47,819 nucleotides of DNA, from the IMG/VR virus record IMGVR_UViG_2534681833_000010; one strand, given 5' to 3'. How positions within the stretch are numbered: the stretch's first letter is position 1; every line of letters begins with the position of its first letter. A program made the translations under genes and the position numbers. The DNA comes from a virus (Duplodnaviria > Heunggongvirae > Uroviricota > Caudoviricetes). The notes below the pieces were generated by a model. That model searched no databases, had not been told where the DNA came from, and saw only the letters and a list, made by a program, of their open reading frames with translations. Positions 4,255-30,045 of this stretch are shown piece by piece.

Positions 4255-4481
4255 ATGCTAATTGGCTATGTACGCGTATCAACAAATGAACAAAACACTG
4301 CTTTACAACGAAATGCTCTTGAAAGCGCAGGATGTGAGCTAATTTTTGAGGACAAGGCGAGCGGCAAAAAGGCTGAACGACCAGAGTTAAAAAAATGCTT
4401 TTGAGAGGTGACACTCTGGTCGAATGAAAGTTAGATTGGCTTGGATGCAGTATGCGCTCGCTCTTGAAGCATGAACAGTAA
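4255..4481 (+). pseudogene. cin: decayed serine DNA invertase (Cin/Gin/Pin/Hin family) remnant
   Basis: Translation [49 protein letters not shown] then stop; homology to invertases continues out of frame ([25 protein letters not shown]) with an in-frame stop; catalytic N-terminal motif present, remainder deleted. Confidence 0.7.
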
Positions 4482-4547: not shown

Positions 4548-4697
4548 CTACGCCTCCGGGAACGCTGGCAAATTGACATCTGGTGCAGTGCTGGTATCCG
4601 TTGCGGTCACCGCATCGATATAATCCAGCACAGCGTTAAGACGGGTGGTTTCAGCCTGCGTAAGATTCCGCCCGGCCTGTAATTTCAGTTGAATAGA
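4548..4697 (-). pseudogene. tail fibre assembly protein (Tfa/U family) C-terminal domain fragment
   Basis: Open segment translating to ...LNAVLDYIDAVTATDTSTAPDVNLPAFPEA, resembling the conserved C-terminus of lambda Tfa (..[22 protein letters not shown]..); no start codon; different frame from the upstream 79-aa ORF. Confidence 0.45.
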
Positions 4698-4717
4698 CTA
4701 ATGGAGCCATTGCGGTA

Positions 4718-4957
4718 TCAATCAGCGACTGTTTTTTCTGTTTCAGCGTCAGCTACCAGTTCATCATGAGAACGTTCCGGAGTGGGTGGTGCAGTAAATC
4801 CCCCGTCTGAATACACCCAGCCGATTCCGGGCTGCTCACTGATATCAGAAATATTAATGAGCTGCTGATTATCCGGCACTGTGAATTCAGCCTCGCCATC
4901 CCAGACAATGACATTCACAACCATCCCATTTTCAATAACTGCATATGATGTATTCAT
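4718..4957 (-). CDS. hypothetical protein translationally coupled to tail fibre gene (possible Tfa N-terminal module)
   Basis: ATG overlaps the tail-fibre stop (TAATG); 79 aa from MNTSYAVIENG...; followed out of frame by the Tfa C-terminal fragment. Confidence 0.35.
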   Translation of the reverse strand: MNTSYAVIENGMVVNVIVWDGEAEFTVPDNQQLINISDISEQPGIGWVYSDGGFTAPPTPERSHDELVADAETEKTVAD

Positions 4958-6821
4958 TATGCAAACTCCTCGATAATACAAATCCCTGCAGCGCCTTTCC
5001 CGCCCGTCATACTGGTTCCGCTATAACCGGCATCGTATGCACCACCGCCGCCCGAACCATATGCCCGACCGATAACGCCACCGCCAGCGCCTGCGCGACC
5101 ACCGCCCCCCCAGAACGATGATCCTCCTTCACCACTGACGCTGATATTTCCGGACTGACCGTCTCCTCCATGCCCACCAATAATGCGGACATCACCAGTA
5201 TTCGGCGCGCCTCCATTACCACCGTTCGTGTTTGTGACTCCTACTTTCCCGCCGCCTTCACCGCCAGGGGCTATTACCGTTCCGAACGAGCTATCACCGC
5301 CCTTGAGGCCGTTCGTAGCACCAACACCGCCGCCCCCACCTGCGCCGATAGTGACAGGATAACTATCCTTCGTCAGGGTCAGCGTGACAATTACTGTCCC
5401 GCCGGCCCCACCGCCTGCACCGAAAAACGTTTCGTTATTGGATGTAGCCTGGCAGCCACCCCCTCCGCCACCGCCGCCCGTAATTGTGACCCTGATTCGT
5501 TTAGTTCCTGGTGTCGGGGTGTACGTACCTGATGAAGTGAAAATTCGAGTGTTTACAAGGCGTCCAACGTATCCACTTGCATCGCTCAGGCCAAGGTCAG
5601 CAGTAGTAGGTTTATTTTTAGTGTTATACGCTCTGCGCCATCCAGGTGAATAACTTGAGCCATTAGACACATAGATAAACTCCGCATTAGTGAGTGCACC
5701 AGTGACATTTGTCGTAGTGGCCGTTGTTATTCGAATGGTGTAATTGTTGGTATTATTGCTGAATACTTCTATCACAGCACCCGCCAGTGGAATAATGCCA
5801 CAACCAGTTTCACTGTCTGGTATGGATGCACTATTCGCATACGCCCATGCACAACGAGCGATCCATGCTTTCGTATTGAATGCCCCGTTATTTTGCAACA
5901 AAGTAACTAACTGGGCTGTCGTTATTGACTCACCGTTATTACCTGTTGTTAACCAACCAGTAGGAGATGCCGGGCAACCAATATTTGCTGGTGACAGTGA
6001 AATATTCGCAGAACCGTCAAATGAAACCCCATTAATGGTACGCGCTGTTTGCAATTTGGTAGCCGTAGCTGCATTACCGGTCGTGTTCTGGTTACCAGCA
6101 ATGTTTACACCCGGCAGGTTGATATTGGCGGAGCCATCGAATGACACGCCGCCGATTGTGCGGGCCGTCTGAAGTTTCGTTGCGGTTGCAGCATTACCAG
6201 TCGTGTTCTGGCTACCAGCAATATTCACGCCCGGCAGGTTGATATTGGCGGAGCCATCAAATGAAACGCCACCAATGGTTCTTGCCGTTTGTAATTTCGT
6301 GGCAGACGCCGCATTTCCTGTTGTGTTCTGGTTGCCCGTTGTATTTACGCCCGGTATGGAGTCTTTCGATGTATAGACCTGTGCCCACTCAGACCATGCC
6401 GCATCTGTGTTATCTCTTCTGGAGCGAATTAAGATAGGTGCATGAGCACCACTTGTAGCACTCCAGCCAATGAGTAACTCGCCTTCACCTCTTGATGTGG
6501 CTCCCTTCAGGTGAAGAATGTTCCCGTAAGCCGTAGGATAACCATTGTTGTACGCCTCATACATTTGCAACCCAGCTGCATCGCCTTGCGTTGTTCCGGT
6601 GAGCGCAGTAACACGTCCTCTGGACGTAATTGTTGGGATCGAAATGTCCGCAGAACCATCAAACTGAACACCATTGATGTTTCTCGCCTTTTGCAACTTC
6701 GTAGCCGTTGAAGCATTGCCGTTCAAACTACCATTGATGCCGCCAGTAACATCGAGCCCATTACCGATCGTAACAGTACCATTGGCATTGTTAATGATAA
6801 GCGGCCTTAAATTATTATAGG
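4957..6821 (-). pseudogene. tail fibre protein, distal (C-terminal) portion separated from the rest by IS2
   Basis: Reading frame continues across the IS2 target duplication into the upstream portion (..NSLGTY|NNLRPLIINN..); contains about 31-aa tandem repeats (ATATKLQTARTIGGVSFDGSANINLPGVNIAG.QNTTGNA) and a poly-Gly/Gly-rich C-terminal domain (TITGGGGGGGGCQ..GAGGGAGG..). Confidence 0.75.
5986..6354 (-). repeat. in-frame tandem repeats (about 93 bp unit, nearly 4 copies) within tail fibre gene
   Basis: Near-identical nucleotide and peptide repeats; further copies in the N-terminal portion. Confidence 0.7.
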
Positions 6822-6912
6822 TAGACTGGCCCCCTGAATCTCCAGACAACCAATATCACTTATTTAAGTGATAGTCTTAATACTAGTTTTTAGACTAGTC
6901 ATTGGAGAGCAG

Positions 6913-7278
6913 ATGATTGATGTCTTAGGACCGGAGAAACGCAGACGGCGTACTACACAGGAAAAGATCGCTATTGTTCAGCAGAGTTTTGAACCGGGAA
7001 TGACAGTCTCCCTTGTTGCCCGGCAACACGGTGTGGCAGCCAGCCAGTTATTTCTCTGGCGCAAGCAATACCAGGAGGGAAGTCTTACTGCTGTGGCCGC
7101 AGGAGAACAGGTCGTTCCTGCCTCTGAACTTGCTGCCGCCATGAAGCAGATTAAAGAACTCCAGCGCCTGCTCGGCAAAAAAACGATGGAAAATGAACTC
7201 CTTAAAGAAGCCGTTGAATATGGGCGTGCAAAAAAGTGGATAGCGCACGCGCCCTTATTGCCCGGGGATGGGGAGTAA
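6913..7278 (+). CDS. insC: IS2 transposase OrfA (InsC)
   Basis: [41 protein letters not shown]... helix-turn-helix and leucine-zipper OrfA of IS3 family. Confidence 0.85.
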
Positions 7279-8141
7279 GCTTAGTCAGCCGTTGTCTCCG
7301 GGTGTCGCGTGCGCAGTTGCACGTCATTCTCAGACGAACCGATGACTGGAAAGATGGTCGCCGCAGCCGTCACTCAGATGATACGGATGTGCTTCTCCGT
7401 ATACACCATGTTATCGGAGAGCTGCCCACATATGGTTATCGTCGGGTATGGGCGCTGCTTCGCAGACAGGCCGAACTTGATGGTATGCCTGCGATCAATG
7501 CCAAACGTATTTACCGGATCATGCGCCAGAATGCGCTGTTGCTTGAGCGAAAACCCGCTGTACCGCCATCGAAACGGGCACATACCGGCAGAGTGGCTGT
7601 GAAAGAAAGTAATCAGCGATGGTGCTCTGACGGGTTCGAGTTCCGCTGTGATAACGGAGAAAAACTGCGAGTCACGTTCGCGCTGGACTGCTGTGACCGT
7701 GAGGCACTGCACTGGGCGGTCACTACGGGCGGCTTCAACAGTGAAACAGTACAGGACGTCATGCTGGGAGCGGTGGAACGCCGTTTCGGCAACGAGCTTC
7801 CGGCGTCTCCAGTAGAGTGGCTGACGGATAATGGTTCATGCTACCGGGCTAATGAAACACGGCAGTTTGCCCGGATGTTGGGGCTTGAACCGAAGAACAC
7901 GGCGGTGCGGAGTCCGGAGAGTAACGGCATAGCAGAGAGCTTCGTGAAAACGATAAAGCGTGACTACATCAGTGTCATGCCCAAACCAGACGGGTTAACG
8001 GCAGCAAAGAACCTTGCAGAGGCATTCGAGCATTATAACGAATGGCATCCGCATAGTGCACTGGGTTATCGCTCGCCACGGGAATATCTACGGCAGCAAG
8101 CCAGTAATGGGTTAAGTGATAACAGGTGTCTGGAAATATAG
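7236..8141 (+). CDS. insD: IS2 transposase OrfB (InsD; expressed as InsCD by -1 frameshift)
   Basis: 301-aa ORF with DDE integrase-type catalytic domain (..WCSDGFEF.., ..[11 protein letters not shown].., ..[11 protein letters not shown]..) overlapping insC. Confidence 0.85.
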
Positions 8142-8152
8142 GGGCAAATCCA

Positions 8153-10477
8153 ATAGGTTCCCAGGCTGTTACCCGAATTGGTCAACATGAAATATGTCTT
8201 TGAGCCATCGTTTCGGATAAAGAATCCGTAGCTTCCATAGGCAATGCGGAAACCATTTGCATATCTTGAAACGATCTCACCAGTAGCCGTTAAACCGCCG
8301 TTGAGATTTCCTCCGGTTATTGGTAATGCGCCGACATCCGTGGCGGTCGGTTTAATGTGCGAACTGTAAATAACATATACCGTTCCATCAGTAAGACCAG
8401 TTGGTTTATCTACTGTGTAATTTGGTGATGTATGAATCGTTACGCTGGCGTTACTGGTATAATCCCACTGGATATTTACACCCGTGGCGTAATTACCTAT
8501 TTCAACATAAACATCATAGGTATCACCGGATGTATTCACCCATGCAAAATTAGTAAATCCAACCGATGTCCGTCGCCATAACGCACCAGTAAGACCTTTT
8601 GGATTCCCATTTCCCGCACGAAGAACAAGTTCAGATATACCAGCCTGCATAGGGGAGTTAACATTATATCCAGAACTACCAATCAGGCTTATGTAAACTA
8701 CGGAACTTGCCTGTGGCATGGTTACAGTTGCCAGCTTGAACCATCCTGCACCACCAATAAAAGACATGGTTGTTGAGTTGATCGTGCCTATAGACCTTGG
8801 AGTTAGCTCAATGTTTTTAGAACCGTCAAACGACACCCCATTTATAGTTCTCGCGGTTTGTAACTTGGTCGCTGTAGCCGCGTTACCGGATGTATTCTGA
8901 TTCCCCGCAACGTTAACACCAGGTAAATTAATATTCGCAGTACCATCAAATGCCACACCGCCAATCGTGCGTGCTGTTTTCAATTTCGTCGCGGTGTCGG
9001 CGTTCCCTGTCAGCGCCCCGGTGATCCCACCGTTGAAAGTCTGGCGTGCACTCCATGTGTTAGCCGTGCTCAACAGGGGGATCTTTTCACCGCTGGTACC
9101 GATTTCTCTTAAACCAAGGTATTGGATAACAGCCAGTGTGCTTGTTTTAGCCAGGATATCGCGACCGACTGACGTTAAATCAGTCTGGGAAACAGTGTCT
9201 GTACCGGTAAAGTACGGCAATTTATTTGCGCCAGTCGTAAGGCCAGCGAGCGCTGTTAAAGTTGCATCAAGTGGCTGTTTCCCTGCCAGCGCATTTGTCA
9301 TTGTTGTCGCAAAGTTCGGGTCATTGCCAAGTGCTGCTGCAAGCTCATTCAGGGTATCAAGAGCTTCTGGTGATGAGCCGACCAATGCAGATATAGCAGC
9401 CCGTACGTAAGCAGTCGTAGCGATCTGCGTATTGTTTGTGCCCTGTGCAGCGGTAGGTGCAGTAGGGATACCCGTTAATGCAGGGCTTGCCAAAGGCGCT
9501 TTGAGAGCCAGGGCATTGTTGATAGTTGTGCTGAAATTCGGGTCGTTATTGATCGCAGCCGCAATTTCTTTCAACGTATCCAGTGCTCCAGGAGCACCAT
9601 TGATAAGTGCTGTTATAGCTGCCTTAACAAAGGCTGTGTTTGCGATCTGCGTGCTGTTTGTACTTTGCGCTGCCGTAGGCGCGGTTGGCGTTCCTGTAAG
9701 CTCTGGGCTTTCTATTGGCGCTTTGGTATCAGCCAGCTCTTTTACAGACTTAACGGCTTTAGGGGTAGCCGCCATTGTTTCGCTGTCGCTGTTAGTTGCG
9801 CTACTGAGCTGAACTAATCCCTTTTGTGTTGTGCTTGCATCCTGCGCCGTATACTTGCTTTTCGCCAGATCGTAGGCTTTTTTAACCGCCAGCGAACTTG
9901 CAGCGACATCACTTCTGGTACTGGTTACAGAGTCGGAAATTTCAATGCCTATCGTGAGATCGATGCGGTCGGATACATCTATCATTTCCTGAGTAATAGC
10001 AGATACGCCAGCAGGGATATTCACCGTACAAACAAGCAGTTCCCCATCTCCTAACTGATATGAATCGGTATAGGTTCTGGCAACAAATTCAGCCGCATGA
10101 ATATGTGACGCGGTATTAACCTGATAAGAATCTTCTCCAAGGAGGTATCTTCCCTTCAGCACAATTGCATATTTCTTACCTGCGCTAAGTGCAAGAGAAA
10201 TATCCTTACGCTGCTGAATAGTTACCTGGTAGAATTCACCAATATTCACTGACGCCGCGCCAGCGGTTTTATCACCATCCACTGAGGTGATTAACAGGTT
10301 CATCCCACCGCCAGGCTTCGGCAGGAAACCAGCATAAAATCCAGGGTCAACAATTCCCCTGAATTTTCGGTTTAGCGCGGCTGACAGATATGGTTCGTGG
10401 TATTGCACATCAGCCACCAGAGCCAACGACTCGGGTGATGGGTAAGTAACCGATGTAACAACTGTAACGTCATTCAT
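8153..10477 (-). pseudogene. tail fibre protein, N-terminal portion (IS2-interrupted)
   Basis: Start ATG at 10475-10477 with AAGGA 9 nt upstream (MNDVTVVTSVTYPSPESL...); two about 69-aa repeats (TAPTAAQ.TN.TQIA.TA.V.AAI.AL....P.ALDTL.E.AAA..NDPNF) and fibre-type repeats shared with the distal portion. Confidence 0.75.
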
Positions 10478-10488
10478 CAAGCATATCC

Positions 10489-10923
10489 TTATGCTGTAGT
10501 CGTGTTTATGGCCATAACTGCGGTATATGTTTTGCCCACATACAGCGAGTCTTCCTGGACACAAATAATGGCGATTGGCTTGTTCTCGTTATCCAGAACA
10601 ACCAGAGTGTTGAATGGGTAGTTTTTCCCTTCCTGCAACTGGCTTTGATCAAGGTCCATTCGGACAGTAATTATCCCGCCTGAGTAGGTTGGAACGAGGT
10701 CGATGGTGCAAAATTGACTTGTCAGTTCAGCCAGATCGAAAGCCTTTGGCAGTTCTCCAATCTCATAAGTACCATCTCCTTTCTTAGTAACCAGTGAACT
10801 GGTACCGAAAACGGCCTTACTGATTAAAAATCGAGAGCCTTTGTTAATGGACGATTCAGCGCGCCGCTGATAGTAATAGTCCAACAACTGACTCTTATAG
10901 AGGTTTGTTGAGACGTCAGACAT
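10489..10923 (-). CDS. tail-fibre-associated virion protein (P1 R-like by position)
   Basis: 144-aa ORF immediately upstream of the fibre gene in the same operon. Confidence 0.3.
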   Translation of the reverse strand: MSDVSTNLYKSQLLDYYYQRRAESSINKGSRFLISKAVFGTSSLVTKKGDGTYEIGELPKAFDLAELTSQFCTIDLVPTYSGGIITVRMDLDQSQLQEGKNYPFNTLVVLDNENKPIAIICVQEDSLYVGKTYTAVMAINTTTA

Positions 10924-17394: not shown

Positions 17395-18276
17395 TCAGCG
17401 TCCTGAATCGGTATACCCCCATACAAAACCAGGTTGGACACTAAGGTCTGATAGCTTTTCAATCCCCACCTGTGGAATGAAGTCGGTAGCCCGAAAGGGC
17501 ACCCACAGACGGGTATATGCACCCTCTGTGGACTCCTTTTTATCCTGATTTGGGCATTTATGCGGCGGGAGACGAAGACGCATTTCACCTTTATCGATGT
17601 AGCACGGTAAACCATGTTCGAGCTTTTCATGAGCCAGTCGGATGTGTGCCGCCAGCTTCATAAATTCAGTATCAATGGCCATCCGTTTAATCGTTTCATA
17701 ACGACGCTCAGCCTGATCTTCACGAGTACCGCTAACATCGTTATAAAGCTCACACTGATAAGCGAATTCCCAAAAACGCAAATCAACGATCGCTTCTTTG
17801 AATTCCGCGTCGTCTTCAGGTGGCAATGCTGCACGGCGCATCTCCAGCATTTCCATTGCCCAACCATCAAGCGGCACGATACGCCATTGATAAGGTACTC
17901 CCTCTACAGACACCTCAATATCGTCAATGAAAGGTTCCACTTCCAGGACCTGGATATCTTCAGCCAGAGCATTCATATCGCAATCGTAATAATGCTCTTT
18001 ACCGCAATGTTTACAGGTGTAGGTGAATGTCTCGACCGGTGTTTCACGGGAGCCGGTAAATATCCACCATAACGCGGTAATCCGGTCCTGCGCCGTCCAT
18101 GTCAGGGGATCATGTTTCGCGGGTTCAGCCAGCAAGGCTTTTAAATACGCCGTTGTCTGTTGTTCTTGTTCCTCCGGTGTTATCGAGTTGAAACGCATCG
18201 CATCAGCAATATTTGGCTGACGGAACTGGATCAATTCAGTTGGCCGCGATGGTAGCGGGAAAAGAGGTAAAAGCAT
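17395..18276 (-). CDS. hypothetical virion assembly protein with Cys-rich motifs
   Basis: 293-aa ORF; CKHCGKEHYYDC and CYIDKGEMRLRLPPHKC suggest a zinc-ribbon; upstream of sit. Confidence 0.3.
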   Translation of the reverse strand: MLLPLFPLPSRPTELIQFRQPNIADAMRFNSITPEEQEQQTTAYLKALLAEPAKHDPLTWTAQDRITALWWIFTGSRETPVETFTYTCKHCGKEHYYDCDMNALAEDIQVLEVEPFIDDIEVSVEGVPYQWRIVPLDGWAMEMLEMRRAALPPEDDAEFKEAIVDLRFWEFAYQCELYNDVSGTREDQAERRYETIKRMAIDTEFMKLAAHIRLAHEKLEHGLPCYIDKGEMRLRLPPHKCPNQDKKESTEGAYTRLWVPFRATDFIPQVGIEKLSDLSVQPGFVWGYTDSGR

Positions 18277-18290
18277 CCTTGCTCCTTAAT

Positions 18291-18902
18291 TCAAAGAGAA
18301 AAGCTAAAGCCCAGAAGGGAAGCCAAAGAACTTGAGGATTGGTTAAACGTGCTGTGCAATGCGAAGGTCATTGGGAATGACTTAAATTCAGTAACCTGAT
18401 CTCGCGCATAGGTGACATCGCCGGTAGTGACCGGGAATACCGTCATCTCATTTTCCAGTTTGGTTAAGCCGGAAGACAGCAACCGATAAATACGCACATT
18501 GAGCAAATATTTAGACGGTATATTCCCGGTACCGTCCGGATTGATCACCCGACTTTTTGCCGTCTTAAACCAGTCCAAAACGAGGCCATCAACGGTATCC
18601 CTGACCATCATTGTTATCTGCCCAGGCGAACGCTCCGTTGGTTGAAGGATATTCCCTCCGCCGATTTTAATCGTTTCATATTCGATGCTGTAATCGTGGT
18701 AGGTAATATCTTTGGCAAAGAAGTCTGCCCCCTCCAGTCCATCAACTTCGACAGAGAACTGCCATCCTTGCGCGAACAGCATTTTGTTCATGATGATTGA
18801 CGTCAGCTTACCAACTTCCCGTTCACCAACGCCGGAGCCAAATAATGTCGTCGTTAATGCCGAAGATACATAAGACTTTACTGAAGCAACATTAAACCCC
18901 AT
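18291..18902 (-). CDS. putative tail tube protein (Tub-like by size and position)
   Basis: 203-aa ORF in the tail operon upstream of sit; no motif recognised. Confidence 0.3.
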   Translation of the reverse strand: MGFNVASVKSYVSSALTTTLFGSGVGEREVGKLTSIIMNKMLFAQGWQFSVEVDGLEGADFFAKDITYHDYSIEYETIKIGGGNILQPTERSPGQITMMVRDTVDGLVLDWFKTAKSRVINPDGTGNIPSKYLLNVRIYRLLSSGLTKLENEMTVFPVTTGDVTYARDQVTEFKSFPMTFALHSTFNQSSSSLASLLGFSFSL

Positions 18903-18912
18903 ATCAGCCCTC

Positions 18913-19503
<591 letters not shown>

Positions 19504-19559
19504 TTAACAGATTCTACGAGTTGTCATTTGTGACAGTATGCTCGCAATCGTAGTGATTA

Positions 19560-20099
19560 CTACCACCAACTGCTAGCTTTCTTCTCTCTAGCTTTTCCTT
19601 CGCTTTGCAGTAAATCTTTACTTCCTGTAGAAATATTTCTATTTGCATCAGCCTCAGACTGAATTACATCTGTCTTAGCTGCTCTCTCCTTCAACTCCTG
19701 CTCTATAAAATCGTTTTCTCGCTGGACACGAGCCGCTTTTGCTTGCAGTTCGAGTTTCATGCTTTCGAGTTGCAGCTTGCGAAGCTCATCCTCATAAGCT
19801 TGATCTCGCTTCTTGTCATTTGCTAGCTCGGCTTCTCGTTTCGCTCTACGTTCATTTTCTGCAGCAACACGCTGTTTTTCGCGTGCAGCAGCGGCAGATG
19901 CTGCTTTTTCTCTTCTAATACGTTCAGCTTGTGCTTGTTGGCGAATAAGTTCTTTTCTGGCATCCTCAGCTTGCTGCTCTTTAGCTCGCCCTTCATTTTC
20001 CGCTTGAGCAATAGCAGCAATTTGACTTTGCAACGAGTTAGCCAAGGCAGTGCCTACACTAAACGTAGAAAAGATTAGAAATAAAATAATTTTATTCAT
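19560..20099 (-). CDS. secreted coiled-coil protein (TolA-like Ala/Glu/Lys/Arg-rich repeats)
   Basis: N-terminal signal peptide MNKIILFLIFSTFSVGTALA then highly charged helical repeats (EQQAEDARKELIRQQAQAERIRREKAASAAAAREKQRVAAENERRAKREAEL); AT-rich codon usage. Confidence 0.5.
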   Translation of the reverse strand: MNKIILFLIFSTFSVGTALANSLQSQIAAIAQAENEGRAKEQQAEDARKELIRQQAQAERIRREKAASAAAAREKQRVAAENERRAKREAELANDKKRDQAYEDELRKLQLESMKLELQAKAARVQRENDFIEQELKERAAKTDVIQSEADANRNISTGSKDLLQSEGKAREKKASSWW

Positions 20100-20102
20100 A
20101 AA

Positions 20103-20615
20103 TTATTTCTTTTCTGGACAAGTAGCATTTGGCTGAATTCGAGTTTCATTATCTTTAGTTGAAATAAGCACAGCAAGCCCCGTTGTAAACTGGCATGCTT
20201 TACCAACTTGAGTTGAAGTGAACACCTTAGTTCCTTCTTTATAAGTCAGTGAAACACCTTCAACAATTGTTTTATCACTAACCAAAGAACCAGCCGCTGC
20301 ACCAAGAGCCGCACCACCAGTACCGCCAGCTACAGCACCCAGTGTCGATGTGCCTTTAACATTATAACCGGCAACGCCCCCAGCAACAGCTCCCAGTACC
20401 GCACCAAATGTCTGTGCCGCTTCTTTATTAGCTTTATTATCAACTTTCACTTTAGCTGGAAGCACAGAGATAATATTGACTGTCTTTGTTTCCTGCTTCG
20501 AATTCAATTGAGCGGTATCATAAACATCGGCAGCATAATCAGCACCGCTAGATTGACACCCAGAAAGAAGAATTGCAGATACAACAAGAGCGCATAAAGT
20601 ATACTTTTTAGACAT
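20103..20615 (-). CDS. glycine-zipper lipoprotein
   Basis: Lipobox LLSGC after hydrophobic signal (MSKKYTLCALVVSAILLSGC); Gly/Ala zipper (GAVLGAVAGGVAGY..GAVAGGTGGAALGAAAG); 3 nt upstream of the coiled-coil gene. Confidence 0.5.
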   Translation of the reverse strand: MSKKYTLCALVVSAILLSGCQSSGADYAADVYDTAQLNSKQETKTVNIISVLPAKVKVDNKANKEAAQTFGAVLGAVAGGVAGYNVKGTSTLGAVAGGTGGAALGAAAGSLVSDKTIVEGVSLTYKEGTKVFTSTQVGKACQFTTGLAVLISTKDNETRIQPNATCPEKK

Positions 20616-20905
20616 AAGAATCATCCCAGAAAAACAAAAACCGGCGAGAAGTTACCACAAGAACGGAAAGTAAACAAGAATACTCCCATTGACTTATATC
20701 AATTAATCAACTTTTTATAAGCTATCCCTAACTTATTGTGTATAGCTGAAAAGTCAGAGACAAGTTCACCATCTGCATTATTTCTTAAGTTAATAGTTTA
20801 TTGCTAACTTAATTTATGTATCGACTATTGATATCCATCTTAAAGTTACAATATCCATCTGCATTATTTTTCATCACAAATAATATATCTATTGCACGAC
20901 ACTAA

Positions 20906-20922
20906 TCTGCTCTAATAAATTT
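20906..20922 (+). promoter_or_regulatory. C1 repressor operator (Op51-like)
   Basis: TCTGCTCTAATAAATTT matches P1 C1 operator consensus ATTGCTCTAATAAATTT at 15/17. Confidence 0.65.
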
Positions 20923-20960
20923 GTATTTTTAAGTCGCGAATGCTATCTTTTTGCATCATA

Positions 20961-20989
20961 TTGACCTTTTAATCGTTCAGGCTTATAGT
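20961..20989 (+). promoter_or_regulatory. sigma70-type promoter (P51b-like) for immunity operon
   Basis: TTGACC, 17-bp spacer, TATAGT. Confidence 0.5.
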
Positions 20990-21091
20990 TTCGCCGTCGT
21001 AGCAAATTCTGCGACCGGGTTTAGCAGCCTGAATACTTACGCGGACAACCGCAGATTTCCGATATTGCGGTATTTTTGTGTCCGTAAACCA

Positions 21092-21175
21092 CGTTACGCC
21101 CGAATTATGGTGGGGCGTGATGGGGAGGCTTCGGCCTGCTGGTTTCGTAAGTGCCAGTCTGCTAACCCCGTCACG
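21092..21175 (+). ncRNA. c4: c4-like antisense repressor RNA (coordinates approximate)
   Basis: Noncoding stretch between promoter and icd; segment GTCTGCTAACCCCGTC complementary to repeated target motifs GGGTTTAGCAGCC (21017-21029) and GTTTAGCAGCGGG (21186-21198) flanking it, as in P1 c4 control. Confidence 0.4.
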
Positions 21176-21234
21176 TCCTGCCACCTGTTTAGCAGCGGGT
21201 CGCAGGTTGTTTATCAACTTACGAGGCCGTAACT

Positions 21235-21456
21235 ATGGTTAATGCCAATCCTTGCGCACGCCAAGAATTCATCTGGCGTTTCTATTCCTGCAAAAAACAC
21301 CACTATCACTTCGTCATCGCAGCAACAGAAGACGAAGCACGCTCTCAATTGCCTGATGGCCCCTGCATTTTTACTGCCCGTTTTTCAACTAACTCGCGCA
21401 ATTCACTTAGTTACTGGAACCTCCCCTTCTCTGCCGACGTTCAGGGGGTTTTATGA
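21235..21456 (+). CDS. icd: Icd-like small protein (cell-division interference) translationally coupled to ant
   Basis: 73-aa ORF whose stop overlaps the ant start (ATGA); target repeat immediately upstream. Confidence 0.45.
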   Translation: MVNANPCARQEFIWRFYSCKKHHYHFVIAATEDEARSQLPDGPCIFTARFSTNSRNSLSYWNLPFSADVQGVL

Positions 21457-22496
21457 AAAAACCTCTCGTCACCCGTAATGACATAGCCGAAGCGATCGCC
21501 CTGCATACTGCCTGTATGCCGACACGGGAGATCCCCGGCGCAATTGCCAACTATTTCATGATAACCAGACGTTTTTATACCCGAACAGATAAGGCTGTGA
21601 TCAACAGGCTACTGATAGCCGAGATCAGGGATTATTTGATTGAACAAGGACGTCTACGTTACGCAACGGTGGCAGCAGAAATGAGAAAGGAGGCACATAG
21701 AATGACCAGTAATAATTTGAATGTTAAAAAACCAGCATCTGTTGCTTCAGCTACGCCATCACCAGCTGTGAATGTTATCTCCAACACTGGAGACACAATC
21801 GACAGCCAGACGCTGTTAAAGATGGTCAATGAAGCGCGTAAGTTATGTGGGGAACCAGAGGTTCGGAACAACAAATTCATCAAAAAAATACTCGACGAAT
21901 TAGAAGGTGAGGACGGTTACACAAAAAGTGCAACCGTGCCGCCAGGTGGCGGTACGCCTATGGTTGTCATAACCATGACCTACAAACAAGCCCTGCGAGT
22001 CGCCGCGCGCGAGTCAAAAGCAGTCCGCCGTTCGCTGATCGACAAACTGGAAGAATTGCAGCAGGCAAACTCCCCTGCCCCATCGATCCCCCAAACATTA
22101 CCAGACGCTCTACGCCTGGCTGCCGAGTTGGCAGAACAGAAAATGCAGTTGGAACAACAGCTGGTGGCCGCAGCCCCTAAAGTCGATTTTGCCGACCGGG
22201 TATCAGCGGCTAATGGAATCCTGATCGGGAACTTTGCAAAGGTCGTTGGACTTAAGCAAAACGCCCTTTTCTCATGGTTGCGCCAGAACGGCATTCTCAT
22301 GGCTTTTGGTGCGCGCAAAAACGTACCGCGCCAACAGTACATCAACGCCGGGTATTTCACGGTGAAAGAAGTGGTGCTGGATGATGAAAATGGCTACCAG
22401 ATACGGCTGACGCCCCAATTAACGGGTAAAGGCCAGCAGTGGTTAACTCGCAAGCTACTTGATGCTGGTTTGTTAAAACCAGTAGCAATAGGTTAA
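21453..22496 (+). CDS. ant: antirepressor Ant (Ant1; in-frame internal start for Ant2 at 21702)
   Basis: 347-aa ORF; C-terminal ANT/KilAC-type domain shared with KilA (about 60 percent identity over 135 aa); internal ATG at 21702 preceded by AAGGAGG. Confidence 0.65.
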   Translation: MKKPLVTRNDIAEAIALHTACMPTREIPGAIANYFMITRRFYTRTDKAVINRLLIAEIRDYLIEQGRLRYATVAAEMRKEAHRMTSNNLNVKKPASVASATPSPAVNVISNTGDTIDSQTLLKMVNEARKLCGEPEVRNNKFIKKILDELEGEDGYTKSATVPPGGGTPMVVITMTYKQALRVAARESKAVRRSLIDKLEELQQANSPAPSIPQTLPDALRLAAELAEQKMQLEQQLVAAAPKVDFADRVSAANGILIGNFAKVVGLKQNALFSWLRQNGILMAFGARKNVPRQQYINAGYFTVKEVVLDDENGYQIRLTPQLTGKGQQWLTRKLLDAGLLKPVAIG

Positions 22497-22502
22497 CAAA
22501 AG

Positions 22503-22533
22503 AAAAAACCTGCCAGCAAACTGGCAGGTTTCT
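22503..22533 (+). terminator. rho-independent terminator after ant
   Basis: CCTGCCAG-CAAA-CTGGCAGG hairpin followed by TTTCT. Confidence 0.55.
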
Positions 22534-22573
22534 GAGCAGATCGTCCAACCCGATCTGGATCGAGTCAGAAAAA

Positions 22574-22590
22574 TTTGCTCTAATAAATTT
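22574..22590 (+). promoter_or_regulatory. C1 repressor operator (Op53-like) upstream of kilA-repL
   Basis: TTTGCTCTAATAAATTT, 16/17 to consensus. Confidence 0.7.
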
Positions 22591-22659
22591 CGTTTTCTAA
22601 GTGCAAAGAATCACCATTTCGAGCTGGTGATTGAAGGTTGATGCAAATTTGGAGAAAAA

Positions 22660-23460
22660 ATGCAACAAACATTCAATGCGGATATGAATATATCAAACCT
22701 TCATCAAAATGTCGATCCTTCAACCACTCTGCCCGTTATTTGTGGTGTTGAAATTACGACCGACCGCGCTGGCCGTTACAACCTTAATGCTCTACACAGA
22801 GCGAGCGGACTCGGTGCCCATAAAGCGCCAGCTCAATGGCTAAGAACGCTGTCAGCTAAACAGCTCATCGAAGAGCTTGAAAAAGAAACTATGCAGAATT
22901 GCATAGTTTCGTTCGAAGGCCGTGGCGGCGGCACTTTTGCCCATGAATTGCTCGCTGTGGAGTACGCAGGCTGGATTTCTCCCGCGTTTCGGCTGAAGGT
23001 AAACCAGACATTTATCGACTATCGAGCTGGAAGATTACAACCTGCTATTCCGCAGAGTCTCCCTGAAGCTCTCCGTTTGGCTGCCGACCTGGCAGAGCAA
23101 AAGCAACGGCTGGAGCAAAAAATGCTTATGGATGCACCTAAAGTCGAATTCGCCGAACGCGTTGCTACCGCCAGCGGGGTTCTAATCGGCAACTATGCCA
23201 AAGTGCTCGGCCTGGGCCAAAACTATCTCTTCACCTGGTTGCGTGATAACGGAATTCTGATCGCAACCGGTGAACGCAGGAACGTCCCCAAACAAGAATA
23301 CATATCCCGTGGGTATTTCACCCTTAAAGAAACCGTGATCGATACAAGCAATGGAAGCAGGATTTCTTTCACGACTCGTATAACCGGCAAAGGTCAGCAG
23401 TGGCTTATGAAGCGATTGCTTGATGCTGGTGTGCTGGTGCCTGTCGCGGCGACGCGCTAA
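22660..23460 (+). CDS. kilA: KilA (KilA-N domain with ANT-type C-terminal domain)
   Basis: 266-aa ORF; N-terminal KilA-N-like region; C-terminus paralogous to Ant. Confidence 0.6.
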   Translation: MQQTFNADMNISNLHQNVDPSTTLPVICGVEITTDRAGRYNLNALHRASGLGAHKAPAQWLRTLSAKQLIEELEKETMQNCIVSFEGRGGGTFAHELLAVEYAGWISPAFRLKVNQTFIDYRAGRLQPAIPQSLPEALRLAADLAEQKQRLEQKMLMDAPKVEFAERVATASGVLIGNYAKVLGLGQNYLFTWLRDNGILIATGERRNVPKQEYISRGYFTLKETVIDTSNGSRISFTTRITGKGQQWLMKRLLDAGVLVPVAATR

Positions 23461-23489
23461 CAGACGTAGTAAGAACCACCAGCATTGTA

Positions 23490-24068
23490 ATGCTGGCTAA
23501 AGTCACTTTCCTGAGCTGTATAACGATGAGCGATTTTACTTTTTCTGGCTATGAATTGGCCTGCTTTGTAACACACTCCGGTCTATCCCGTAGCGCCGGG
23601 CATATCTTGTCGCAATGTGCAAATCTCGCGGCAACAACCAGTGAATACTTCATTCACAAGCCTCACCGCCTGATCGCGGCAGAAACTGGTTATAGCCAAT
23701 CAACCGTCGTTCGTGCATTCCGTGAAGCTGTAAACAAAGGAATCCTGTCTGTAGAGATTGTTATCGGCGATCACCGTGAACGTCGCGCTAACCTGTACCG
23801 GTTTACACCATCCTTTTTGGCCTTCGCACAACAAGCCAAAAATGCGCTGATTGAAAGCAAATTAAAGATCTCTTCAGCGGCAACCAAGGTTAAAGCTGTT
23901 CTCGCTAAGACATTGGCTTTATTTAATTTTTTATCCACACCCCCATGTCAAAATGATACCCCCTCCCCCTGTCAGGATGACGTGGCAATAAAGAATAAGA
24001 AGTCACAAGTTAAAAAACAAAAAGATCAGTTTCCGGCGGTGCCGGAACGACCAGACTCAAAAAATTGA
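23490..24068 (+). pseudogene. repL: RepL-like lytic replicon protein, N-terminal part ending at an apparent frameshift
   Basis: ORF downstream of kilA; ends in a Lys-rich tail at an A5 run; reading continues in the +1 frame with no start codon or RBS. Confidence 0.45.
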
Positions 24069-24334
24069 CTTCATGGATCGCTGAGGCAAAAGCAAAGGCT
24101 GACAATCTGCGGTTATCCAAAAAACGCGCTCAAAAACATGAGTTCAAGCAGAAAGTAGAGGCGGCAGCGCGGAAATATGCTTACCTGAAGGACAAGCGTT
24201 CTCCTGATATTGGCGGGATATCAAACTTCGATAATCTGCCGCATTGCATGACGGTAAACGAAGCTCTTAATGCGGTTTTAGCCAAAAATAAAGATAACGA
24301 ACAATGGGGTATACCGGCAGGATTCAGAGGGTGA
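24066..24334 (+). pseudogene. repL: RepL-like C-terminal continuation in shifted frame
   Basis: 89 codons opening with TTG inside the overlap TTGA; combined length 281 aa matches recalled RepL size. Confidence 0.35.
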
Positions 24335-24387
24335 TAGATTGCTCTAATCTGGAGTCACCTGGCGTTTTCGGTTTGAGGTCGGAGATG

Positions 24388-24630
24388 CAATCTGATTTTT
24401 TACAGTTAGCGATCGCTTTTGCAGGATATGTTTGTATTGGCTTCTGTGTATACATGATCAGCCGAAAAATGCTTGTCGATATCGACCGCAAAGAACAAGC
24501 AGAGGAGATCTTAGTATGGATTTTCTTTGGCGCGGTCTGGCCATTAGGGATCATGTTTGCTGCAACATTTCTTCTGATGTGGATATTCACCCTTCCAGGT
24601 GATTTCTATAGAAAAAAAGCCAGACATTGA
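24388..24630 (+). CDS. hypothetical small inner-membrane protein
   Basis: About 80 aa from MQSDF..; two hydrophobic helices (LAIAFAGYVCIGFCVYMI, WIFFGAVWPLGIMFAATFLLMWIF). Confidence 0.3.
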   Translation, partial: QSDFLQLAIAFAGYVCIGFCVYMISRKMLVDIDRKEQAEEILVWIFFGAVWPLGIMFAATFLLMWIFTLPGDFYRKKARH

Positions 24631-24699
24631 TACAATCGTTGCGGGTGCTTGAGGCTATCTGCTTCAGGCATTACCCGAAAAGCAGATAGAAGAAAGCCC

Positions 24700-24795
24700 C
24701 AGATAACATTACGCGTCCTGCAAGACGCTTAACATTAATCTGAGGCCATATCTATGCTTAGCATACGTAGATTAGCCTCTTACCGACCAAAAGGT
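24700..24795 (-). ncRNA. sok: sok-like antisense RNA region of hok/sok locus (coordinates approximate)
   Basis: Inferred from hok/mok arrangement: short mok-like reading frame starts at 24754 overlapping the hok start; sok is expected antisense to the mok initiation region. Confidence 0.25.
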
Positions 24796-24811
24796 CAAGG
24801 AGAAGCAGGCT

Positions 24812-24967
24812 ATGAAGCAGCATAAAGCGATATTAATCGCTCTGATCGTCATCTGTTTAACCGTCATTGTGACGGCACTGGTAACGAGGAAAGACCTCTG
24901 CGAGGTACGAATCCGAACCGGCCAGACGGAGGTCACTGTCTTCACAGCCTACGAATCTGAAAGGTAA
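24812..24967 (+). CDS. hok: Hok/Gef-family type I toxin
   Basis: 51-aa ORF MKQHKAILIALIVICLTVIVTALVTRKDLCEVRIRTGQTEVTVFTAYESER; leader ..TAGCCTCTTACCG..CAAGGAGAAG.. resembles hok mRNA; not in ORF track (below 60 aa). Confidence 0.75.
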   Translation: MKQHKAILIALIVICLTVIVTALVTRKDLCEVRIRTGQTEVTVFTAYESER

Positions 24968-24989
24968 GAGACCTGGCGGGGAGAGATCC

Positions 24990-26328
24990 CATAAGCGCTA
25001 ACTTAAGGGTTGTGGTATTACGCCTGATATGATTTAACGTGCCGATGAATTACTCTCACGATAACTGGTCAGCAATTCTGGCCCATATTGGTAAGCCCGA
25101 AGAACTGGATACTTCGGCACGTAATGCCGGGGCTCTAACCCGCCGCCGCGAAATTCGTGATGCTGCAACTCTGCTACGTCTGGGGCTGGCTTACGGCCCC
25201 GGGGGGATGTCATTACGTGAAGTCACTGCATGGGCTCAGCTCCATGACGTTGCAACATTATCTGACGTGGCTCTCCTGAAGCGGCTGCGGAATGCCGCCG
25301 ACTGGTTTGGCATACTTGCCGCACAAACACTTGCTGTACGCGCCGCAGTTACGGGTTGTACAAGCGGAAAGAGATTGCGTCTTGTCGATGGAACAGCAAT
25401 CAGTGCGCCCGGGGGCGGCAGCGCTGAATGGCGACTACATATGGGATATGATCCTCATACCTGTCAGTTCACTGATTTTGAGCTAACCGACAGCAGAGAC
25501 GCTGAACGGCTGGACCGATTTGCGCAAACGGCAGACGAGATACGCATTGCTGACCGGGGATTCGGTTCGCGTCCCGAATGTATCCGCTCACTTGCTTTTG
25601 GAGAAGCTGATTATATCGTCCGGGTTCACTGGCGAGGATTGCGCTGGTTAACTGCAGAAGGAATGCGCTTTGACATGATGGGTTTTCTGCGCGGGCTGGA
25701 TTGCGGTAAGAACGGTGAAACCACTGTAATGATAGGCAATTCAGGTAATAAAAAAGCCGGAGCTCCCTTTCCGGCACGTCTCATTGCCGTATCACTTCCT
25801 CCCGAAAAAGCATTAATCAGTAAAACCCGACTGCTCAGCGAGAATCGTCGAAAAGGACGAGTAGTTCAGGCGGAAACGCTGGAAGCAGCGGGCCATGTGC
25901 TATTGCTAACATCATTACCGGAAGATGAATATTCAGCAGAGCAAGTGGCTGATTGTTACCGTCTGCGATGGCAAATTGAACTGGCTTTTAAGCGGCTCAA
26001 AAGTTTGCTGCACCTGGATGCTTTGCGTGCAAAGGAACCTGAACTCGCGAAAGCGTGGATATTTGCTAATCTACTCGCCGCATTTTTAATTGACGACATA
26101 ATCCAGCCATCGCTGGATTTCCCCCCCAGAAGTGCCGGATCCGAAAAGAAGAACTAACTCGTTGTGGAGAATAACAAAAATGGTCATCTGGAGCTTACAG
26201 GTGGCCATTCGTGGGACAGTATCCCTGACAGCCTACAAAACGCAATTGAAGAACGCGAGGCATCGTCTTAACGAGGCACCGAGGCGTCGCATTCTTCAGA
26301 TGGTTCAACCCTTAAGTTAGCGCTTATG
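24990..26328 (+). mobile_element. IS186 (IS4 family), complete, with 10-bp target duplication GGAGAGATCC
   Basis: Terminal inverted repeats CATAAGCGCTAACTTAAGGGTTG at both ends; direct repeats at 24980-24989 and 26329-26338; target is a GC-rich palindrome. Confidence 0.85.
25045..26157 (+). CDS. insL: IS186 transposase
   Basis: MNYSHDNWSAILAHIGKPEELDTSARNAGALTRRREIRD... recognised as IS186 transposase. Confidence 0.85.
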   Translation: MNYSHDNWSAILAHIGKPEELDTSARNAGALTRRREIRDAATLLRLGLAYGPGGMSLREVTAWAQLHDVATLSDVALLKRLRNAADWFGILAAQTLAVRAAVTGCTSGKRLRLVDGTAISAPGGGSAEWRLHMGYDPHTCQFTDFELTDSRDAERLDRFAQTADEIRIADRGFGSRPECIRSLAFGEADYIVRVHWRGLRWLTAEGMRFDMMGFLRGLDCGKNGETTVMIGNSGNKKAGAPFPARLIAVSLPPEKALISKTRLLSENRRKGRVVQAETLEAAGHVLLLTSLPEDEYSAEQVADCYRLRWQIELAFKRLKSLLHLDALRAKEPELAKAWIFANLLAAFLIDDIIQPSLDFPPRSAGSEKKN

Positions 26329-26390
26329 GGAGAGATCCCCGCCACTCTTCGTGTGTCAGGTATCCTCAATGCACCCTTTCCTCTCCAAAT

Positions 26391-26417
26391 AAAAAAGCTC
26401 CCGAAGGAGCTTTAAAA
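26391..26417 (-). terminator. bidirectional rho-independent terminator
   Basis: AAAAAAGCTCC-CGAA-GGAGCTTT; U-run on the minus-strand reading terminates the convergent virion operon. Confidence 0.5.
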
Positions 26418-26432
26418 TACAAGGGATGACTC

Positions 26433-26942
26433 TTAATCCCAATCAATCCAGTTGTAGACGATACGAAGTGACGGGCGCACAGCAGCAGTCACATCTTCGG
26501 TACTAAAGTCGATTGCATCACTGTAGATTTTGCAGTCCAACATTTCAATTGTTGTAGCAGCTTTTGTCACAGCGTTAACCCCGGAAGATTTGGATTCAGG
26601 GGTAGCAGCCATCGTGATATCAACATAGTCCTTCGCCGCAATGCGATCTTTAATGAACTGAAGAATATCGCCTTCGATAGTCTCCACGCACTGGACCTGG
26701 ATTTCCCCGGAGTTACGGATTGGACCGTGCTGGTTGAACTTCACACCATTCGGACCATAGTCCTCCACATCCTCGCGGGTCATTTCAGGAATTTGCGACG
26801 TGCGAACCAGTACGCTGATATCTTCATGGCCTGCAAAAGTGAGCTGGAATTCAGAAGATACCAGTCGTTCGCCTTTGGCCGCGTTGGCAGTATAGCGGCC
26901 CTTAATAAATTTACGGTTTCCCTTAGTGTTATTGTGCCCCAT
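26433..26942 (-). CDS. hypothetical virion (tail/baseplate) protein
   Basis: 169-aa ORF, last gene of the minus-strand structural operon. Confidence 0.3.
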   Translation of the reverse strand: MGHNNTKGNRKFIKGRYTANAAKGERLVSSEFQLTFAGHEDISVLVRTSQIPEMTREDVEDYGPNGVKFNQHGPIRNSGEIQVQCVETIEGDILQFIKDRIAAKDYVDITMAATPESKSSGVNAVTKAATTIEMLDCKIYSDAIDFSTEDVTAAVRPSLRIVYNWIDWD

Positions 26943-26953
26943 ATAAAATCCTT

Positions 26954-27535
26954 TTACTGGAACGCCCGAACAATATCGGAGCTATTATATATCGAAGAAC
27001 CGGTCAACTGGAGGTTGACGGTGTTTTTCAGGAAATGCCCATTGCTGTCCCTGGGCGCATCGAGATCGAAACTTATGTCCTGGATAGCGACATCAATGAT
27101 GTTGATCCGGCGACCAATGTTTAGCGTCACACGCTCCGGGATTCGACCACCAATGCTGGCATCTTTAAGTTCCGGGCTAATCATCGCTGACAATGCGGCG
27201 ATAGCTCCTGAAACCTCCGTGAATGGGTCAAACAAAGCGATGAAAGTTACTGGCAGCGTGAAAGTCGGCGGTGTTCCCCCCTCCCAAACCATTAAGCTGT
27301 TCCAACGGGCCACCGACGTTGTTTCAGTACCAACCTGCGCAAAACCACTGAAAGCACCAGCAACAGACCCCATGGACATACCGGTAAACGGCGCTTCCCA
27401 ATTCTGGGCCATGTTCATTGCTGCCCCCTGGCTGATATATCCGGTAACCTGGTACTGAGAGTTCGTTAAAGTAACTTTCAGAAATGGCGATACACCGTCA
27501 GCCTGGCTGTAAACCCCATAAGGTATAGGTGCCAT
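26954..27535 (-). CDS. hypothetical virion protein
   Basis: 193-aa ORF in structural operon. Confidence 0.3.
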   Translation of the reverse strand: MAPIPYGVYSQADGVSPFLKVTLTNSQYQVTGYISQGAAMNMAQNWEAPFTGMSMGSVAGAFSGFAQVGTETTSVARWNSLMVWEGGTPPTFTLPVTFIALFDPFTEVSGAIAALSAMISPELKDASIGGRIPERVTLNIGRRINIIDVAIQDISFDLDAPRDSNGHFLKNTVNLQLTGSSIYNSSDIVRAFQ

Positions 27536-27570
27536 TCAAGTTAAAGGCCGGAGTTCTCCGGCCTCCTCCT

Positions 27571-28386
27571 TTAGCCAAGGCGCTTACGGCGCAGTTTCAT
27601 TGACTTTTTGCGGGCAAGTTTTGCCGCGCCGGTCTGGGCTTTTCGACGCGCTTTTTTCAGCGCCGATTTTTGAGCCGCAGTCAGACGTTTTTTACGCAGG
27701 CGTTTACGGATGAGTTTGATCTCACCGTTACGAACAACCTTCTTAAATGCTTCAGTCAGCATTTCATCAGAAGTGCCAGCAACAACAAACGCCGCTTCCA
27801 GTTCGTCGCGGTCGTCGCTATCTAAACCAGCGATAGAGGCACCAACATCAGCAGCAGCGTCGTCGTCTTCATCGTCAGCCAGTGCTTCGATCAGGTCATC
27901 ATCTACACCGCATGCTGCGAGGAAGTCAGCAACATTTGCCCATGCTTCGTTATAGGCATCGTCCTGTTCTTCTGTAACTTCGGAGTCGTCGTCATCAGAG
28001 ATACCAGCGATAGCCTGAACGAAACCATCAAGGGAGTCGAAAGTCAGATCACCGCTATCAGCCCAGGAGAAAACGGCGTCGGCCGCATCACTCAACGCAT
28101 TCTGCATAGCACTTCGATTTGCAGCTTCCAGAATCATCTGGTGCGCCTGTTCGACGGTCCATTCTTTACCATCTTTCCCTTCCAGGATTTGCTCAGGAGC
28201 CGGATCAGATGGAACATTATCGTTAGTCTGTGCCGCCGGTTCCGGATTATTATTAATAACCGGATCTGTTGGCGGTTCGGCGCTTGCTCGGGCAGACTCC
28301 ATCAGCTGCACAGGATCAGAGTTCAAAGCGAAACGGGACAGTCCATTCCCCAAAAATGCCCCGGATTGAAAAAAGTTTTTGCTCAT
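27571..28386 (-). CDS. hypothetical protein with poly-acidic core and Lys/Arg-rich C-terminal tail
   Basis: 271 aa; DDDSEVTEEQDD..ADDEDDDAAAD then KLIRKRLRKKRLTAAQKSALKKARRKAQTGAAKLARKKSMKLRRKRLG. Confidence 0.3.
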   Translation of the reverse strand: MSKNFFQSGAFLGNGLSRFALNSDPVQLMESARASAEPPTDPVINNNPEPAAQTNDNVPSDPAPEQILEGKDGKEWTVEQAHQMILEAANRSAMQNALSDAADAVFSWADSGDLTFDSLDGFVQAIAGISDDDDSEVTEEQDDAYNEAWANVADFLAACGVDDDLIEALADDEDDDAAADVGASIAGLDSDDRDELEAAFVVAGTSDEMLTEAFKKVVRNGEIKLIRKRLRKKRLTAAQKSALKKARRKAQTGAAKLARKKSMKLRRKRLG

Positions 28387-28395
28387 TGTATTCCC

Positions 28396-29985: not shown

Positions 29986-30045
29986 AACTTTCCCTGTTAT
30001 GCGCCCCGCACGGGGGCGCTATGTTAAACGGAGAACTTCCCCTGA

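Follow-up and report, generated by a model that had tools for sequence, protein, structure and literature searches.

The glycine-rich end of the interrupted tail-fibre gene S of a P1-like phage-plasmid and its relationship to phage Pam3 gp24

On the minus strand of IMG/VR virus record IMGVR_UViG_2534681833_000010 (a stretch of 47,819 nucleotides, referred to here as the window), a tail-fibre reading frame ends in a region rich in glycine and is followed by a chaperone gene that is out of frame. This raises the question of which kind of fibre end the region encodes, to which of the known glycine-rich phage proteins it is related, and whether the nature of the tip can account for the state of the chaperone gene.

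Fibre gene S, its interruption by IS2 and its repeats

The glycine-rich stretch was found at the C-terminal end of an ORF of 630 aa (4957..6849, minus strand). Upstream of it lies a second ORF of 832 aa (8066..10564, minus strand), which contains Phage_fiber_2 repeats and a T4 gp34-type trimerisation domain. An IS2 element of the IS3 family (6822..8152, plus strand; 1331 bp), delimited by its terminal sequences and carrying orfA (6868..7278) and orfB (7236..8141), splits gene S after codon 775 and is flanked by a target-site duplication of 5 bp, ATAGG, on its left (6817..6821) and right (8153–8157). The element is 99.85–100% identical to IS3-family copies in sister plasmids, where the annotation describes an IS3-family transposase with programmed frameshift. 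Removal of IS2 together with one copy of ATAGG (6822–8157) resulted in a single ORF of 1394 aa that does not differ in any amino acid from the fibre encoded intact by plasmid pSvP1_F of E. coli (NZ_MN510446.1). As removal of IS2 rebuilds the pSvP1_F fibre, the region in question represents the 619 codons at the distal end of tail-fibre gene S. The TTG 'start' of the 630-aa ORF lies inside the IS2 end, and its real frame is the continuation of the interrupted S.

The proximal part of S (codons 1–775; 8153..10477, minus strand), assigned from the ATG at 10477, matches to Pfam PF03406 and PF21446 and the codon count, consists of a P1/Mu S-type constant region, the Phage_fiber_2 repeats, two units of 40 aa and the T4 gp34-type trimerisation domain. 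Against PDB sequences it matched Mu S (5yvq, E 4e-22), with T4 gp34 (5nxh/5nxf) also matched. The distal part (4957..6816, minus strand) comprises codons 776–1394 and the stop codon (4957–4959). It includes a Mu S'-type fibre domain at residues 286–430 of the 630-aa ORF (5560..5994, minus strand), identified by phmmer through PDB 8ju3_A ('Tail fiber protein S,S''; E 3e-28, query residues 249–429). Three plus-strand ORFs that overlie this part (5170..5532, 5384..5653 and 5744..6172) were rejected as antisense by-products of the glycine and repeat codons, the minus-strand frame being the one with strong homologues.

The constant N-terminal region is homologous to that of P1/Mu S and the gene is placed between R and tfa/U. 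The genes around S are of P1 type (R, baseplate genes, lydA/B, ddrA and darA-type genes), and the P1 record matches the window at 81% nucleotide identity. In this P1-like phage-plasmid, which is one of pig ETEC, the region forms the variable distal part of the S tail fibre. The SvETEC genome paper names just an 'incomplete P1-like phage' and does not mention the fibre. No record in the plasmid, phage and E. coli collections contained the IS2/S junction or the frameshifted tfa of the window, and neither the fibre nor tfa had a match in NCBIfam.

Within the distal fragment, Tandem Repeats Finder detected an array at 6002–6354 (score 391) with a period of 120 nt (40 aa) and 2.9 copies. The earlier note on this DNA had described almost four tandem copies of a 31-aa unit in this position. 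The repeat is indeed present, and the edge of the array at 6354 is the end that had been claimed for it, but the unit is of 40 aa and there are 2.9 copies. What had been taken for the unit is the conserved core of the 40-aa unit, GNAATATKLQTARTIGGVSFDGSANINLPGV, and the supposed fourth copy is a solitary, diverged unit at residues 36–75 of the 630-aa ORF (6625..6744, minus strand), which shares 52–57% identity with the tandem units and sits 134 aa upstream of the array, not adjacent to it. A period of 31 aa was rejected, as Tandem Repeats Finder gave the 120-nt period alone and the motif spacing is exactly 40 aa. The three tandem units (5983..6342, minus strand; residues 170–209, 210–249 and 250–289) are 80–90% identical to each other as protein and 69–77% as DNA. 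They represent old duplications which have been kept by selection on the protein.

The full fibre contains six such units, with an ATKLQTAR-type motif at residues 496, 536, 813, 947, 987 and 1027; two of the six are in the proximal fragment. In a comparison of repeat number across relatives, which had been proposed as a check, the distal array consisted of 2, 3 or 4 units. The modules of 134 aa and 277 aa between units were also found to differ in their order among relatives. This variation in array size and module order suggests that the 40-aa unit serves as a joint at which shaft modules recombine. The single PDB match to the unit was a weak one, to the stalk of phage L Dec (E 0.025).

The tip cassette and its chaperone gene

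Residues 431–630 of the 630-aa ORF contain 33.5% glycine, against 10–14% in the remainder. The glycine runs that had been pointed out in this C-terminal region are present as described, including GGGGGGGG at residues 458–465 and GAGGGAGG at residues 477–484; GGGGG is found at residues 504–508. Residues 439–627 (4969–5535, minus strand) match the Pfam family Gly_rich_2 (PF21722), scoring 46.3 bits when the whole ORF is searched and 50.5 bits with a 231-aa fragment, the gathering cut-off being 24.3 bits. When 1.8 billion cluster representatives were scanned with HMMER (E<=1e-3), the domain was found in 8165 clusters (50% identity), in which it is nearly always C-terminal. A full-text literature search returned no paper on PF21722 or Gly_rich_2. 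In the window, the domain stops 3 residues short of the stop codon of S, and this stop codon is overlapped by tfa.

The domain forms part of an exchangeable tip cassette of 212 aa (residues 419–630; 4960..5595, minus strand), in which a short linker starting with LGLSDASGYVGR is followed by the domain that is TNF-like as well as glycine-rich. From LGLSDASGYVGR onwards it shares 90% identity with the end of the 583-aa gpH fibres found in P2-like prophages of E. coli, the alignment beginning at residue 419 with none before that point. The next gene in these prophages encodes a Caudo_TAP protein of 137 aa whose identity to the product of the intact pSvP1_F tfa is 90%. In the cultured jumbo phage Goslar, the fibre Goslar_00090 ends in a tip with 72% identity (unmasked Smith-Waterman alignment) and is followed by a tfa with 68% identity to the intact pSvP1_F tfa; Goslar was the sole match in a 'distant' blastn search of the phage collection with the cassette. 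Of 5426 complete E. coli genomes, 288 carry the cassette at a nucleotide identity of at least 80%, in most cases on the chromosome. In the relative pSBF45b, tip and tfa constitute one of the two arms of a Cin-invertible segment that is complete: its inverted repeats are of 201 nt, Cin is intact (186 aa), and the opposite arm consists of an alternative pair, Sv' (527 aa) and U' (178 aa).

The cassette has defined boundaries, is inherited together with tfa and belongs to an invertible segment in a relative. It had been suggested that this is not a typical exchangeable P1/Mu fibre end. The invertible arm of pSBF45b and the occurrence of the tip on P2-like gpH and on the Goslar fibre contradict this, and the tip is an ordinary exchangeable fibre end of P1/Mu type, which, by analogy, is probably also dependent on its chaperone. 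That fibre ends are traded in mosaic fashion among P1, P2 and Mu-type phages is textbook knowledge.

The chaperone gene of the window, tfa/U (Caudo_TAP; 4548..4957, minus strand), was delimited by alignment with four relatives. It had been described as degenerate, and this proved correct, the gene being an out-of-frame pseudogene. Compared with the four relatives it has three 1-bp indels within 49 bp (an additional A at 4741–4743, a missing T at ~4705 and another at ~4695) and zero substitutions, with a premature stop at 4718–4720, after 79 codons. The product of the intact gene, of 136 aa, matches PF02413 and the PHROG tail-fibre assembly families. An intact gene is found in pSvP1_F and ETEC1731, sister plasmids with a tip sequence that is 100% identical, and also in CP057799, CP116245, AP026785, pSBF45b, the P2-like prophages and Goslar. 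Divergence of tfa also tracks that of the tip, with identities of 90% and 90%, respectively, in the P2-like prophages and 68% and 72% in Goslar. The suggestion that the type of tip explains the degenerate chaperone gene could therefore not be upheld, because every other carrier of the tip that was examined keeps an intact cognate tfa; the sisters with an identical fibre end retain the gene, and tip and tfa travel together.

An alternative to be considered is that the tfa frameshifts are errors of sequencing or assembly, with the IS2 insertion alone being real. All three are single-base changes in length within runs of 2–3 identical bases and are unaccompanied by substitutions, and the window is otherwise 99.96–100% identical to two sister plasmids. 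However, 4 indels were found in the ~34 kb aligned to pSvP1_F and 3 of these lie within 49 bp, whereas random homopolymer errors would be expected to scatter, and the runs concerned are short. The frameshifts may represent a local assembly glitch, but errors as the whole explanation are considered possible rather than likely. As S itself is broken in the window, genuine loss of tfa fits a general decay of the module.

Further signs of this decay are found beyond tfa. A remnant of the cin invertase gene (4255..4404, plus strand) consists of an ORF of 49 codons which matches the first ~44 of the 186 codons of pSBF45b Cin and then runs out of register. The same truncation of cin is present in relatives, for which RefSeq gives 'recombinase family protein, frameshifted, incomplete'. 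Neither a second Sv-U arm nor an intact invertase was found in the window. With the alternative arm and the rest of cin deleted, the glycine-rich end is fixed, and inversion does not occur. The fibre module of the window is dead, with S split by IS2, three frameshifts in tfa, and cin and the alternative arm deleted. A functional fibre cannot be made from the window gene, and the mechanism proposed below describes the intact allele of pSvP1_F.

The same copy of IS2 occurs in each of three near-identical P1-like plasmids of pig ETEC at different tail-gene sites, namely in sit in pSvP1_F, at codon 775 of S in the window and in S, with a deletion of 4.5 kb, in ETEC1731. The window documents a route by which a P1 phage-plasmid loses infectivity. 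The IS2 hits and the cluster of tfa frameshifts could be read as repeated selection for silencing of the virion or its fibre, in a passage from phage-plasmid to pure plasmid, as opposed to neutral decay, although this is put forward as a speculation that is rather improbable. A separate suggestion, that the cassette might recognise a class of receptor new to the family, is regarded as equally speculative.

A tip that folds without a chaperone, leaving tfa dispensable and decaying, would also agree with the out-of-frame gene of the window. It is very unlikely, as the window alone has the three indels, the identical tip is accompanied by an intact tfa in pSvP1_F and ETEC1731, the other tip carriers likewise have an intact gene and tfa co-varies with the tip. 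Furthermore, the related fibre protein gp24 of the cyanophage Pam3 was solved together with a Tfa-like chaperone, gp25, in a complex of 3:3 stoichiometry, and the authors propose that this chaperone drives folding and assembly of the fibre (PMC9608196).

Fold of the tip

A monomer model of the tip was produced with AlphaFold2 from an alignment of 80 sequences and had a mean pLDDT of 92.8 and a pTM of 0.86. The glycine-rich segments were modelled with a pLDDT of 95–99 and were assigned by DSSP as neither helix nor strand. When the model was compared to the PDB with Foldseek, it matched 7ypx_A (E 7e-9, TM 0.67). A profile of the 80-homologue alignment searched against PDB sequences also identified the Pam3 fibre chains 7ypx/7yfw over the whole domain (E 3e-22), with the match to 7ypx_A (E 2.9e-22) aligning chain residues 24–285. 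Pam3 gp24 possesses a four-layer lattice of 12 glycine-rich motifs (PMC9608196), and the same number was counted within residues 457–622 of the window ORF, where the GGGGxGG motifs L1 and L6 (central loops) of Pam3 have GGGGGGGG and GSGGGG as their counterparts in the alignment. The domain is a Gly_rich_2 domain with the fold of a TNF-like beta-sandwich and glycine-rich lattice. A polyglycine form of this lattice is predicted for the tip from the homology and from the high-confidence segments that are neither helix nor strand.

Conservation within the family is concentrated in the glycines. In the alignment, 36 glycine columns are at least 80% conserved, and the mean entropy is 1.15 bits in glycine columns versus 2.53 bits in other columns. 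Conserved glycine columns with variable residues between them are the pattern expected of a fixed scaffold that displays variable binding residues.

The earlier note had regarded the tip as resembling the gp38-type adhesins of T-even phages and had proposed structure prediction as a check. The part of this that stands is that a glycine-scaffold receptor-recognition domain is present and that the prediction gives it as folded, while the family is Gly_rich_2/Pam3 gp24, and not gp38, and the closest solved structure is likewise that of Pam3 gp24. The authors of the Pam3 study themselves liken gp24 to gp38 of phage S16 and to ALK (PMC9608196). As for the tip being an actual gp38-type module (a polyglycine-II sandwich) fused to a P1 fibre, a Pfam scan at E<=10 returned Gly_rich_2 alone with GP38 absent, S16 gp38 appeared in neither of the lists from the structural searches against the PDB, and no significant match in global fold to S16 gp38 (6F45) was obtained. 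Such a fusion is largely refuted and retains only a slight probability. A low-complexity, disordered or collagen-like spacer without a specific fold, which the high glycine content and the masking of the stretch by the BLAST low-complexity filter might suggest, is refuted by the pLDDT of 95–99 across the domain, its homology to a solved globular domain, the specific conservation of glycine positions and the absence of Gly-X-Y periodicity, and its probability is negligible.

It is thus highly probable that the distal part of S is a fibre end of P1 type with a Gly_rich_2 tip of the Pam3 gp24 family, which is exchanged with its cognate tfa and is disabled in the window. The family, its fold, its partnership with a chaperone and its resemblance to gp38 and ALK have already been published, and identical proteins have already been deposited as 'glycine-rich domain-containing protein' or 'tail fiber protein'.

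Proposed working of the tip and comparison with known systems

In the full protein of 1394 aa, the P1/Mu-type constant region at the proximal end attaches to the baseplate, and is followed by a shaft of modules spaced by the conserved 40-aa joint unit, by the Mu S'-type domain and then by the terminal 212-aa cassette. The core of the cassette is a TNF-like beta-sandwich carrying the 12 glycine-rich motifs packed as a lattice. By analogy with Pam3, the fibre is probably a homotrimer, which would end in three glycine-lattice domains. The invariant glycines would form the rigid scaffold of the tip, with the receptor-binding surface presented by the variable residues, other than glycine, that lie between them. 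A role of the tip in receptor binding, with lipopolysaccharide as the most likely receptor, is suggested by Pam3 and by homologues of gp24 in the Klebsiella phages SCNJ1-Y and MMNM, which recognise lipopolysaccharide and in which host-range mutations fall within the glycine-rich domain (PMC12671077). Folding of the tip would need, again by analogy, the Caudo_TAP chaperone that is encoded directly downstream and co-inherited with it.

In evolutionary terms, cassette and chaperone are a single unit traded among fibres of P1-like, P2-like and Goslar type, and in some P1-like plasmids this unit serves as one Cin-invertible arm. The tip of 212 aa and the cognate tfa form a naturally portable unit with clean boundaries, present on these three types of fibre. 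It is therefore a candidate module with which P1 or P2 particles, or tailocins, could be retargeted once the receptor is known.

The S/U systems of P1 and Mu have in common with the window the gene order R-S-tfa-(cin), the constant region and the Mu S'-type domain, while the reference phages P1 and Mu have terminal receptor-binding domains other than that of the window tip. In the P2-like gpH (Phage_tail_fib, Phage_fiber_2 and Gly_rich_2) and Goslar fibres, the cassette begins at the same LGL(S/A)D junction as in the window. The proximal part of gpH is unrelated to the window fibre. That of Goslar is a P1-S-like fibre, in which four tandem 40-aa units are fused directly to the tip and the Mu S'-type domain is absent.

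A likeness also exists to ALK/LTK (PDB 7LIR, 7LS0 and 7NX3), metazoan receptor tyrosine kinases with an extracellular supradomain of TNF-like plus glycine-rich (TG) type that binds cytokines; the number of glycine helices differs from that of the window tip and there is no functional relation. The gp38 proteins of T-even phages (Salmonella phage S16, PDB 6F45; T2 and PP01) resemble the tip in having a rigid scaffold of glycine motifs with variable receptor-binding segments at the end of the fibre. However, gp38 is a separate, monomeric protein of ~250 aa which caps gp37 and is attached non-covalently, whereas the window domain forms the C-terminal end of the S frame of 1394 aa. The middle domain of gp38 is a beta-helix in place of the TNF-like sandwich, sequence homology between the two was not detected, and the gene downstream of the window tip encodes a Caudo_TAP chaperone and not an adhesin of gp38 type. 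Among the closest known systems is gp24/gp25 of Pam3 (PDB 7YPX and 7YFW), which has its domain family in common with the window tip at an identity of just 27–30%. Pam3 gp24 is a minimal fibre of 280–290 aa, made up of a helical shaft and the tip, whereas in the window the same type of domain caps a modular P1-type fibre of 1394 aa, following the Mu S'-type domain.

Shaft modules of the tail fibre

Six copies of a conserved 40-aa unit were found in the tail fibre of this P1-like phage-plasmid (window 8153-10477 and 4957-6816). Among the relatives compared (loci L002 and L009-L012), the modules of 134 and 277 aa which lie between the units were found to be permuted or absent, and the arrays of the unit differ in length, from two to four. 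The rearranged modules and the variable array length suggest that the 40-aa unit acts as a recombination joint for the shuffling of shaft modules.

Relatives of the glycine-rich tip (window 4960-5595, minus strand) were also encountered on Escherichia coli chromosomes. Some of these copies, of 308 aa, are labelled "carbohydrate kinase" in NCBI records, a name that seems to have been given in error to the remnant of a prophage fibre. Other copies overlap a gene called stfP.

The assembly chaperone gene and the cin remnant

Directly downstream of the tail-fibre gene S, the assembly chaperone gene tfa contains three single-base indels (+A, -T and -T) within 49 bp (window 4695-4743). These are peculiar to the window among the plasmids compared and make up three of the four indels in the entire alignment of approximately 34 kb with its sister plasmid pSvP1_F (NZ_MN510446.1). 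They may represent either real mutations or an assembly fault.

Adjoining tfa, the invertase gene cin is reduced to an ORF of 49 codons (window 4255-4404, plus strand), matching approximately 44 of the 186 Cin codons. Relative to pSBF45b, in which the Cin-invertible segment is complete, approximately 2.6 kb is gone, and with it U' and Sv', the inverted repeat on the right and the greater part of cin. Many P1-like plasmids are annotated with the same remnant, and the deletion is therefore old in this lineage.

Larger rearrangements

Window 18182-36716 is inverted relative to pSvP1_F, in which both ends of the equivalent block hold an IS91 copy, the two in opposite orientation. An IS4-like IS421 segment within the block (window 24974-26344) is oriented opposite to its surroundings. 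This rearrangement is likely to have been IS-mediated. Window 36700-46473, encoding a dam methyltransferase, dnaB-type helicase, RdgC and SPFH protein and carrying IS91, shares 100% identity with the ETEC1731 plasmid (NZ_CP122822.1) but gave no alignment to the fetched 49-kb stretch of pSvP1_F.

IS2 insertions in the sister plasmids

The same IS2 was found at differing tail-gene sites in three almost identical P1-like plasmids of pig ETEC. In the window (6822-8152) it interrupts S behind codon 775, and in pSvP1_F (L005 14330-15672) it occupies the sit/transglycosylase gene. In the ETEC1731 plasmid NZ_CP122822.1 (L013 5595-6925) it also lies in S, in inverted orientation, and is accompanied by a deletion that starts near codon 97 (window 10188) and extends to window 5670. 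The three plasmids are each defective in their own way.
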